A stretch of DNA of 64,000 nt, from assembly GCF_003991155.1 (NCBI RefSeq), contig NZ_CP031293.1; one strand, 5' to 3'. How positions within the stretch are numbered: the first letter of the stretch is position 1; each line of letters opens with the position of its first letter. Shown in pieces: positions 15,476-17,775 of this stretch. A program made the position numbers and the translations under genes. Origin of the DNA: Escherichia coli. GTDB taxonomy: Bacteria > Pseudomonadota > Gammaproteobacteria > Enterobacterales > Enterobacteriaceae. Under the pieces are notes generated by a model. The model saw nothing but the letters and a program-made list of their open reading frames with translations. It did no database searches and was not told the DNA's origin.

Positions 15476-15590
15476 CCTGTTTTTCGCAACTGTTATGCAA
15501 AATCGTGGCAAATCTGTTACTTTCCCTCTACTATTCCCACGTTAAAATAGGGTGTTCCCTGGAAAGTTGCAGATACCACGAAGGCAAACG

Positions 15591-16061
15591 ATGACCGAAA
15601 TACAACGCCTGCTGACCGAAACGATTGAGTCTCTGAATACCCGCGAAAAACGCGACAACAAACCCCGCTTTAGTATCAGTTTTATCCGTAAACATCCGGG
15701 GCTGTTTATCGGTATGTATGTTGCTTTTTTTGCCACCCTGGCGGTGATGTTGCAGTCCGAAACGCTTTCAGGCTCTGTCTGGCTACTGGTTGTATTATTT
15801 ATCCTGCTTAATGGTTTCTTCTTTTTCGATGTCTACCCACGCTACCGCTATGAAGATATCGACGTGCTGGATTTCCGCGTTTGCTATAACGGCGAATGGT
15901 ACAACACGCGCTTTGTACCTGCCGCGCTGGTTGAAGCCATCTTGAACTCTCCGCGTGTCGCGGATGTTCATAAAGAACAACTGCAAAAAATGATCGTCCG
16001 TAAAGGTGAACTGTCTTTTTACGATATTTTTACCCTCGCTCGCGCCGAATCAACATCTTAA
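15591..16061 (+). CDS. ylaC: Inner membrane protein YlaC
   Basis: ORF 15552..16061; start placed at ATG 15591 ([27 protein letters not shown]); two predicted TM segments. Confidence 0.85.
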
Positions 16062-16218
16062 GTTAGGGTTACATACCAGGCGTAAAGCTCTGCGCCTGGT
16101 CAAATGACAACGTTCGTTTCCACCCATCCCTTCATGAAATCCCGGCTCTACCTCCTTATCTCCTGCCAGCCTTTTTCCACAATCAGATATACTTTCCCTA
16201 CACTGTGTTAATAAGGAT

Positions 16219-17775
16219 ATGCTGGTGAGAACACGACATCTGGTCGGCCTTATTTCGGGAGTACTGATTCTTTCAGTATTGCTGCCTGTCGGCTTAAGCA
16301 TCTGGCTGGCCCATCAGCAGGTAGAAACATCATTTATTGAAGAGCTGAATACCTATTCCTCCCGCGTCGCTATTCGGGCCAATAAGGTGGCGACACAAGG
16401 GAAAGATGCGCTGCAAGAGCTGGAAAGATGGCAAGGCGCTGCCTGTAGCGAAGCCCATCTCATGGAAATGCGTCGGGTATCTTACAGTTATCGCTATATT
16501 CAGGAAGTGGTTTATATCGATAACAACGTTCCCCTGTGTTCGTCTCTGGAGCATGAAAGCCCACCCGATGCCTTCCCCGAGCCAGGTAAAATTTCGAAAG
16601 ATGGTTATCGTGTCTGGTTAACATCGCATAACGATTTAGGCATTATCCGTTACATGGTCGCCATGGGAACGGCACATTATGTCGTCATGATCGACCCCGC
16701 TTCCTTTATTGATGTCATTCCCTATAGCTCATGGCAAATTGATGCCGCCATTATTGGCAATGCCCATAACGTTGTGATAACCAGCAGCGATGAAATTGCT
16801 CAGGGAATTATTACCAGACTACAAAAAACACCCGGTGAGCATATCGAAAATAATGGAATCATTTACGATATCCTGCCCTTACCGGAGATGAATATTTCGA
16901 TCATCACCTGGGCTTCAACGAAAATGTTGCAGAAAGGCTGGCATCGGCAAGTCTTTATTTGGTTACCGCTCGGGTTGGTGATTGGCCTGCTGGCAGCGAT
17001 GTTTGTGCTGCGTATTTTGCGCCGTATCCAGTCACCGCATCATCGGCTGCAGGATGCTATCGAAAATCGTGATATTTGCGTGCACTATCAGCCGATTGTC
17101 TCCTTAGCCAATGGCAAAATTGTCGGTGCTGAGGCACTGGCGCGCTGGCCGCAGACAGACGGTAGTTGGTTGTCACCAGATAGTTTTATTCCGCTGGCAC
17201 AGCAAACGGGCCTTTCTGAGCCATTGACGCTACTGATTATAAGAAGCGTCTTTGAAGATATGGGCGACTGGCTGCGTCAGCATCCTCAGCAGCATATTTC
17301 GATCAATCTTGAATCCACCGTGCTCACCTCGGAAAAAATCCCGCAATTGCTGCGTGAAATGATCAATCACTATCAGGTTAATCCCAGACAGATCGCGCTT
17401 GAACTCACTGAACGCGAGTTTGCCGATCCGAAAACCAGCGCCCCGATAATTTCTCGCTACCGGGAGGCGGGCCATGAAATTTATCTCGATGATTTTGGTA
17501 CGGGGTATTCAAGTTTAAGCTATTTACAGGATCTGGATGTCGACATTCTGAAGATCGATAAATCTTTCGTTGATGCGCTGGAATATAAAAATGTCACGCC
17601 ACATATCATCGAAATGGCAAAAACACTGAAACTGAAAATGGTAGCGGAGGGAATCGAAACCAGTAAACAAGAAGAGTGGCTACGCCAGCATGGCGTGCAC
17701 TACGGCCAGGGCTGGCTCTACAGCAAGGCATTACCGAAAGAGGATTTCTTACGCTGGGCCGAGCAACATTTGTGA
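16219..17775 (+). CDS. pdeB: c-di-GMP phosphodiesterase PdeB (YlaB), CSS-motif sensor plus EAL domain
   Basis: 518-aa ORF; N-terminal TM segment, periplasmic CSS region, C-terminal EAL domain (EALARW...DDFGTGYSSLSYL). The canonical start may be the GTG two codons downstream (16225). Confidence 0.88.
   Translation: MLVRTRHLVGLISGVLILSVLLPVGLSIWLAHQQVETSFIEELNTYSSRVAIRANKVATQGKDALQELERWQGAACSEAHLMEMRRVSYSYRYIQEVVYIDNNVPLCSSLEHESPPDAFPEPGKISKDGYRVWLTSHNDLGIIRYMVAMGTAHYVVMIDPASFIDVIPYSSWQIDAAIIGNAHNVVITSSDEIAQGIITRLQKTPGEHIENNGIIYDILPLPEMNISIITWASTKMLQKGWHRQVFIWLPLGLVIGLLAAMFVLRILRRIQSPHHRLQDAIENRDICVHYQPIVSLANGKIVGAEALARWPQTDGSWLSPDSFIPLAQQTGLSEPLTLLIIRSVFEDMGDWLRQHPQQHISINLESTVLTSEKIPQLLREMINHYQVNPRQIALELTEREFADPKTSAPIISRYREAGHEIYLDDFGTGYSSLSYLQDLDVDILKIDKSFVDALEYKNVTPHIIEMAKTLKLKMVAEGIETSKQEEWLRQHGVHYGQGWLYSKALPKEDFLRWAEQHL

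Follow-up and report, generated by a model that had tools for sequence, protein, structure and literature searches.

PdeB (YlaB, b0457) of Escherichia coli K-12 is the closest described counterpart of the gene considered here. It is controlled by sigma-S and regulated by DsbA-dependent disulfide formation and by DegP/DegQ proteolysis, and in its architecture two transmembrane segments flank a periplasmic CSS domain (Herbst et al. 2018; PMC5897775). Published work on the protein relied on C-terminal Flag tags (PMC5897775). The DNA that we analysed, the window, is a 64,000-nucleotide stretch of E. coli (contig NZ_CP031293.1). It holds the same gene: the order tomB-hha-maa-ylaC-pdeB, with ybaA convergent, is common to K-12 and the window, and the K-12 start-region DNA equals that of the window over the candidate promoter, the Shine-Dalgarno (SD) element and the codons ATG, CTG and GTG. 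Elsewhere in the protein, the two differ by a few amino-acid polymorphisms. The predicted product is a c-di-GMP phosphodiesterase with a CSS-motif and an EAL domain. A Pfam search places the CSS-motif domain (PF12792, E=1.3e-53) at residues 40-244 and the EAL domain (PF00563, E=9.9e-67) at residues 276-503, and the motifs ...NVPLCSSLEH... and ...VGAEALARW..., respectively, are seen in the translation. Two hydrophobic stretches read by eye in the translation, LVGLISGVLILSVLLPVGLSIWL at the N-terminal end and VFIWLPLGLVIGLLAAMFVLRIL before the EAL domain, are candidate transmembrane segments. The upstream neighbour, ylaC (15591..16061, + strand), is supported by annotation and by its match to the Pfam YlaC family (E=1.8e-70).

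Two kinds of described start-site ambiguity invite comparison with pdeB. In ordinary cases, where the longest open reading frame (ORF) disagrees with a start supported by a ribosome-binding site (RBS), there is likewise an in-frame alternative a few codons upstream, and both versions are present in databases. The pdeB case is unlike these in that the alternative is an ATG and the supported start a weaker GTG, and in that the ATG lies inside the SD-to-start spacer. Because the ATG competes with a weaker supported GTG, the longest-ORF choice is a tempting one for pdeB. The second kind comprises in-frame initiation sites upstream of annotated starts, the uTISs detected by Ribo-RET, 6 in BW25113 and 36 in BL21 (Meydan et al., bioRxiv 10.1101/520783); the pdeB ATG, if used, would be an N-terminal extension of that type. 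Unlike the Ribo-RET uTISs, this extension would consist of two residues only, a length that, according to the TRAINSPOTTER study, is close to the finest difference that ribosome profiling can resolve. The main text of the Ribo-RET study does not mention pdeB or ylaB, the TRAINSPOTTER N-terminomics supplements yielded no pdeB/ylaB entry, and the texts and supplements searched contained neither an experimentally determined N-terminus of PdeB nor a footprint of its initiation.

In the window, the start region reads ...AATAAGGAT ATG CTG GTG AGA ACA CGA CAT CTG..., and the longer upstream stretch is GTTAATAAGGAT. The upstream in-frame ATG (16219..16221, + strand) heads the longest ORF, which extends over 16219..17775 on the + strand and encodes 518 aa with the N-terminus MLVRTRHL. 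It is followed by a CTG (16222..16224, +), which belongs to the SD-to-start spacer if GTG is used and is Leu2 if ATG is used, and then by the GTG (16225..16227, +), which is annotated, conserved and most likely the principal start. The SD element UAAGGA (16212..16217, +) is supported by its conservation and by its duplex with the 16S 3' tail; its end is separated from the GTG by 7 nt and from the ATG by 1 nt. An earlier note on this DNA had reported two in-frame starts two codons apart, and ATG 16219 and GTG 16225 can indeed be read in the sequence.

We place the principal start of PdeB at GTG 16225, for a protein of 516 residues beginning MRTRHL..., with a probability of about 0.82. The upstream ATG is specific to Escherichia and is probably a minor or unused start. 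We infer the codon actually chosen by the ribosome from sequence, annotation, conservation, natural variants that have lost the ATG, and SD geometry. The preference for GTG rests mainly on conservation and on the ATG-loss variants, and RBS geometry provides a consistent mechanistic rationale. The earlier note had named experiment as the sole arbiter of the start, which is too pessimistic, since GTG is favoured, without experiment, by its conservation across species, by the ATG-loss variants and by SD geometry.

Reference annotation already handles this start-site pair correctly, and in that respect the ambiguity is a routine detail with nothing new to it. The pdeB (ylaB) coding sequence (CDS) is annotated at 16225..17775 (+, 516 codons and a stop), and RefSeq/PGAP starts the gene at GTG, with 1,551 nt encoding 516 aa plus a stop and the N-terminus MRTRHL, in every record inspected (2016C-3878, an O157:H7, c1-17 and K-12 MG1655, and the variant-haplotype strains 266917_2, MEW and CFSAN061763). 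Annotation was carried onto the window by the relation locus coordinate = window - 14499. Over a 601-nt query, the window matches strain 2016C-3878, and not K-12, at 100% identity, and over 50 kb it differs from that strain by 2 nt. Of 5,426 complete E. coli genomes, 5,424 carry the locus, in each case annotated as pdeB and lying beside ylaC. The curated K-12 MG1655 record (b0457 / NP_414990.2) spans 477067..478617 on the minus strand with a GTG start, and the window GTG at 16225 corresponds to K-12 coordinate 478617 on that strand. The annotated protein had been given in the earlier note as MRTRHL, from GTG, and the RefSeq/PGAP records and K-12 MG1655 bear this out.

Exact 518-aa forms of the K-12 and window proteins have both been deposited (e.g. 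BAJ42297.1, AFG39352.1, WP_000961248.1). They are represented by several accessions, with one RefSeq WP record among them, and the 516-aa forms are far more numerous. That several submitters and one RefSeq WP record carry the longer form lends some support to a reading in which translation in Escherichia principally begins at ATG 16219, for a protein of 518 aa, and the reference annotation lacks the first two codons. The same reading gains from the position of this ATG at the head of the longest ORF, and from the prevalence of ATG over GTG among the annotated starts of 45 neighbouring genes (41 versus 4). It fares poorly against the comparative data.

Nineteen loci were compared, nine from Escherichia and ten orthologs from other genera with 57-75% identity. 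The codons were read directly from DNA because gene callers could share a bias. A contig scan with a single protein gave only Escherichia-level relatives, and the distant orthologs were reached by a protein search and ten contig look-ups. Our anchor, the codon that aligns with GTG of E. coli, is a start codon in 19 of 19 loci (GTG in 16, ATG in 3). Six nucleotides upstream of the anchor, ATG is found in eight of the nine Escherichia loci and in none of the ten from other genera, which have ATC (five), AGC (two), AGG (two) or TTG (one) instead; the ninth Escherichia locus, from Escherichia sp. MOD1-EC7003, has ATA in its place. Apart from that single TTG, then, no ortholog outside Escherichia offers a start codon here, which argues against the ATG as principal start. 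AAGGA and GTG do not vary among the nine Escherichia loci, which cover E. coli, E. albertii, E. whittamii and cryptic clades; their middle codon is either CTG or TTG. The distance from TAAGGA to the anchor is identical in Escherichia and Citrobacter-like loci. In two orthologs an in-frame stop precedes the anchor, by 15 nt in Trabulsiella and by 18 nt in Leclercia, and an upstream start cannot fit there.

The protein search adds more than 100 orthologous proteins, all of which start M-x-[T/N/S]-R-x-L, with their first residue at the position of the GTG, from a set spanning Citrobacter, Enterobacter, Leclercia, Lelliottia, Phytobacter, Trabulsiella, Yokenella and further assemblies; RBS-based heuristics shared by gene callers may be partly responsible for this agreement. 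The simplest history would be a recent ATC-to-ATG substitution in the Escherichia lineage, inside a former SD-to-start spacer, with the new codon in frame by happenstance. Synteny 5' of pdeB differs among genera: the immediate upstream neighbour in Escherichia is ylaC, and divergent ribosomal protein L31/L36 paralog genes lie directly upstream in Citrobacter-, Enterobacter- and Leclercia-like loci. Downstream of pdeB, ybaA (DUF1428) stays in place in most orthologous loci.

Variation within E. coli was measured with 30-base probes, which count haplotypes exactly because megablast needs a 28-base exact word. The haplotype ATG-CTG-GTG occurs in 5,276 complete E. coli genomes, ATG-GTG-GTG (a probe suggested by metagenome matches) in 139, and ATA-CTG-GTG in one, strain MEW. 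Together the three account for ~5,416 of the ~5,420 genomes with the full locus. Probes for GGACATGCTGGTG and for the E69-type GATAAGGACATGTTGGTG had no match among complete E. coli genomes. An 87-nt spread search was set aside as uninformative for rare variants, and the genomes missing from the count were explained by the ATG-GTG-GTG probe. GTG is essentially fixed in E. coli. Strain MEW, which is without the upstream ATG, has an intact 1,551-nt pdeB annotated from GTG, and the ATG-GTG-GTG strains are likewise annotated from the third codon. An invariant GTG, next to an ATG that has been lost in lineages with an intact gene, is again difficult to reconcile with the ATG as principal start.

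A metagenome scan that left all three codons free gave 77 matches. The third codon, the anchor, is GTG in 77/77; the first is ATG in 75, ATT in 1 and ATC in 1; and the middle codon is CTG in 72, GTG in 2, and TTG, TGC and TTC in 1 each. Among the compared loci and the metagenomes, the middle codon is free to vary (CTG, TTG, GTG, TGC, TTC, ACT, AAC and others). Judged by these patterns, the first two codons appear to act as spacer sequence and the third as the start codon. The middle codon was itself considered as a start, in the form of CTG at 16222 or its TTG and GTG variants, and was rejected: its aligned spacing is ~1-2, it is a weak codon, and its position is free to vary. Polymorphism also extends into the coding sequence. 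Between 16222 and 16247, some 370 of 5,420 genomes depart from the window sequence, and a Gly8/Ser8 polymorphism (GGC/AGC) is common at window position 16246, in codon 8 of pdeB and within transmembrane helix 1; many database proteins read MRTRHLVSLIS.

The upstream ATG is kept in ~99.98% of E. coli genomes. Its near fixation could be taken to favour a second alternative, in which both codons are used appreciably, the ATG initiates independently of the SD, and PdeB exists as 516- and 518-residue isoforms differing by Leu-Val at the cytoplasmic N-terminus. Retention of the ATG in E. coli is, however, also expected from simple inheritance, and the codon is dispensable in two lineages (MOD1-EC7003 and MEW) and absent outside Escherichia. 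The change of the middle codon from Leu to Val in the 139 ATG-GTG-GTG genomes is non-synonymous, which suggests that the extension is without protein-level constraint.

The geometry of the RBS bears on both alternatives. In the computed duplex, the 16S 3' tail (ACCUCCUUA) pairs with UAAGGA at 16212-16217 at -6.0 kcal/mol, and the duplex computation found no other favourable duplex upstream that could serve as an alternative SD for the ATG. Measured to the full anti-SD, the aligned spacing is 4 nt for GTG, with a negligible penalty, and -2 for ATG, with a penalty of 12.2 kcal/mol; at this spacing the ATG overlaps the stretch facing the rRNA tail. The optimal aligned spacing, as reported by Chen et al. 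1994, is ~5 nt, and the GTG comes close to it. When a canonical SD-led start is defined by an anti-SD-complementary motif at an aligned spacing of ~5 nt (roughly 3-9), GTG 16225 belongs to this class and ATG 16219 falls outside it, and conservation at the homologous position separates the two codons in the same way. The pattern is the same in 18 modelled loci, where the anchor-codon duplexes range from -4.9 to -8.5 kcal/mol and the aligned spacing from 3 to 9. A 30S subunit anchored on UAAGGA would set its P site ~7 nt downstream, on the GTG, and ATG 16219 would fall inside the SD-to-start spacer, 1 nt past the SD core. The closeness of the ATG to the SD core and the lack of a substitute upstream add to the comparative data against it, and on all these grounds together it is highly improbable as the principal start. 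Neighbouring genes offer a further comparison, which is partly circular because PGAP uses RBS models: in 45 of them the gap from an SD-like 4-mer to the annotated start is 3-12 nt and never 1-2 nt, and on this scale GTG of pdeB, at 7-8 nt, is typical, and ATG sits at 1-2 nt.

For a quantitative comparison of the two codons, a simple RBS model was used, with spacing penalties and start-codon terms after the Salis 2009 RBS model. GTG is favoured ~150-fold if the ATG is obliged to use the UAAGGA SD. If the ATG initiates without an SD, a hand calculation gives totals of -6.07 versus -1.19 kcal/mol (beta 0.45), and GTG is favoured ~9-fold. Start sites are reported to be selected correctly across the genome even when SD pairing is missing, with A-rich sequence upstream assisting initiation (Saito et al. 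2020; PMC7043885), so SD geometry alone is not decisive against some initiation at the ATG. Appreciable use of both codons draws its support from here: ATG is a strong start codon, intrinsically above GTG; the upstream GUUAAUAAGGAU is A/U-rich, and A-rich upstream sequence promotes SD-free initiation (PMC7043885); and the SD-independent model leaves the ATG just ~9-fold under GTG. On the other hand, an SD-bound 30S subunit would occlude the ATG, and the two events would compete on one mRNA. Taken together with the natural variants, these considerations make appreciable dual use unlikely.

With GTG 16225 as the principal start, which we prefer, the ATG would at most give rise to a minor isoform that carries two extra N-terminal residues (Met-Leu-Val versus Met) in the short cytoplasmic segment preceding transmembrane helix 1. 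One could also envision a scenario in which the Escherichia ATC-to-ATG change created a second, SD-independent start that is actually used, either yielding the isoform with two additional residues or tuning PdeB output through competition with GTG. We consider this a long shot. If true, the ATG/GTG pair would be a small lineage-specific translational control element of a sigma-S-controlled phosphodiesterase, and not a neutral substitution.

A role for mRNA structure in hiding the GTG and favouring the ATG was considered and rejected. Predicted local folds do leave the ATG somewhat more accessible, with a probability of being unpaired of 0.47-0.61 versus 0.03-0.33 for GTG. The local fold is no better than that of shuffled sequence (z = -0.59), and the consensus fold across species reaches only -3.6 kcal/mol, with one compensatory pair.

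How often such ambiguity arises can be gauged from the 45 intact annotated CDSs in 50 kb of the window. In 19 of the 45, an in-frame ATG, GTG or TTG lies between the annotated start and the nearest stop on its upstream side. The upstream codon is at most five codons away in five of them, and it is an ATG that close in two, pdeB and hha. The start ambiguity of pdeB is no more than chance would give. A similar ambiguity is seen in ylaC, where the longest ORF begins at GTG 15552 (169 aa), a TTG follows at 15567, and PGAP takes ATG 15591 (156 aa).

The ambiguity has practical weight only and opens no biological question. The earlier note limited its relevance to N-terminal work, and we concur; this is an ordinary annotation detail. 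In designing N-terminal tags, translational fusions or scarless deletions of pdeB, one should count GTG 16225 as codon 1 and keep UAAGGA and its 7-nt spacer. A clone that begins at the ATG would carry an additional Met-Leu, and the GTG would be read as an internal Val; the product would be non-native, though this probably does no harm. The case illustrates on a small scale that the longest-ORF rule is unreliable, and that a cross-genus alignment of start regions can settle ambiguities of this kind without experiments.

Upstream of the RBS, a candidate pdeB promoter mapped by eye occupies 16176..16204 (+ strand), with TCCACA at 16176-16181, a 17-nt spacer and TACACT at 16199-16204. Genomic SELEX with RpoD holoenzyme had identified a site in the ylaC-ylaB spacer, for which TCCACA-17-TACACT was proposed as the promoter of ylaB (Shimada et al. 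2014; PMC3946193). An alternative -10-like hexamer, TATACT, which is sigma-S-like, lies at 16188-16193 inside the spacer of the candidate promoter. The block GATATACTTTCCCTACACTG (window 16186-16205), which holds both TATACT and TACACT, is conserved from Escherichia to Citrobacter-like genera. A simple scan for sigma-70 promoters and terminators returned nothing above threshold in 15900-16400. Either -10 would put both candidate codons on the transcript, and therefore the position of the promoter cannot discriminate between ATG and GTG.

An inverted repeat, ACCAGGCG-N10-CGCCTGGT, is located at window 16075-16100, 14 nt past the ylaC stop. Its stem is nearly invariant in the nine Escherichia loci, a single one of which departs from it by two changes in the left arm, and its flanks vary. 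The repeat has no T-run and therefore went uncalled in the terminator scan. Possible roles are termination of ylaC transcription or, as a hairpin, stabilisation of RNA.

Several E. coli genomes carry rearrangements at or near the pdeB start. In GCA_045585815.1, a ~1.3-kb IS3-family element is inserted exactly at the start (equivalent to window 16225-16229), with a 5-bp GTGAG target duplication; from the look of its ends, the element is presumably IS2. The insertion parts the candidate promoter, the SD and ATG-CTG-GTGAG from the GTG-led coding sequence, and gene callers extend the ORF into the end of the element, which results in two 543-aa proteins starting MTSLKT...GAS-LVRTRHL. Strains CFSAN061763 and CFSAN061768 have an IS1 insertion ~150 nt into pdeB and two annotated pseudogene fragments, and the N-terminal stub starts at GTG. 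In FCI56 (NZ_CM172715.1), the match stops at about window 16205, just 5' of the SD, and pdeB appears to be deleted or replaced from the RBS onward. Two of the 5,427+ matching places sit on records labelled as plasmids. Finally, NZ_JAHZMO010000130.1, a 510-bp, low-coverage contig in a Firmicute assembly labelled Terrisporobacter petrolearius, is 99% identical to E. coli pdeB and almost certainly represents contaminating E. coli DNA.
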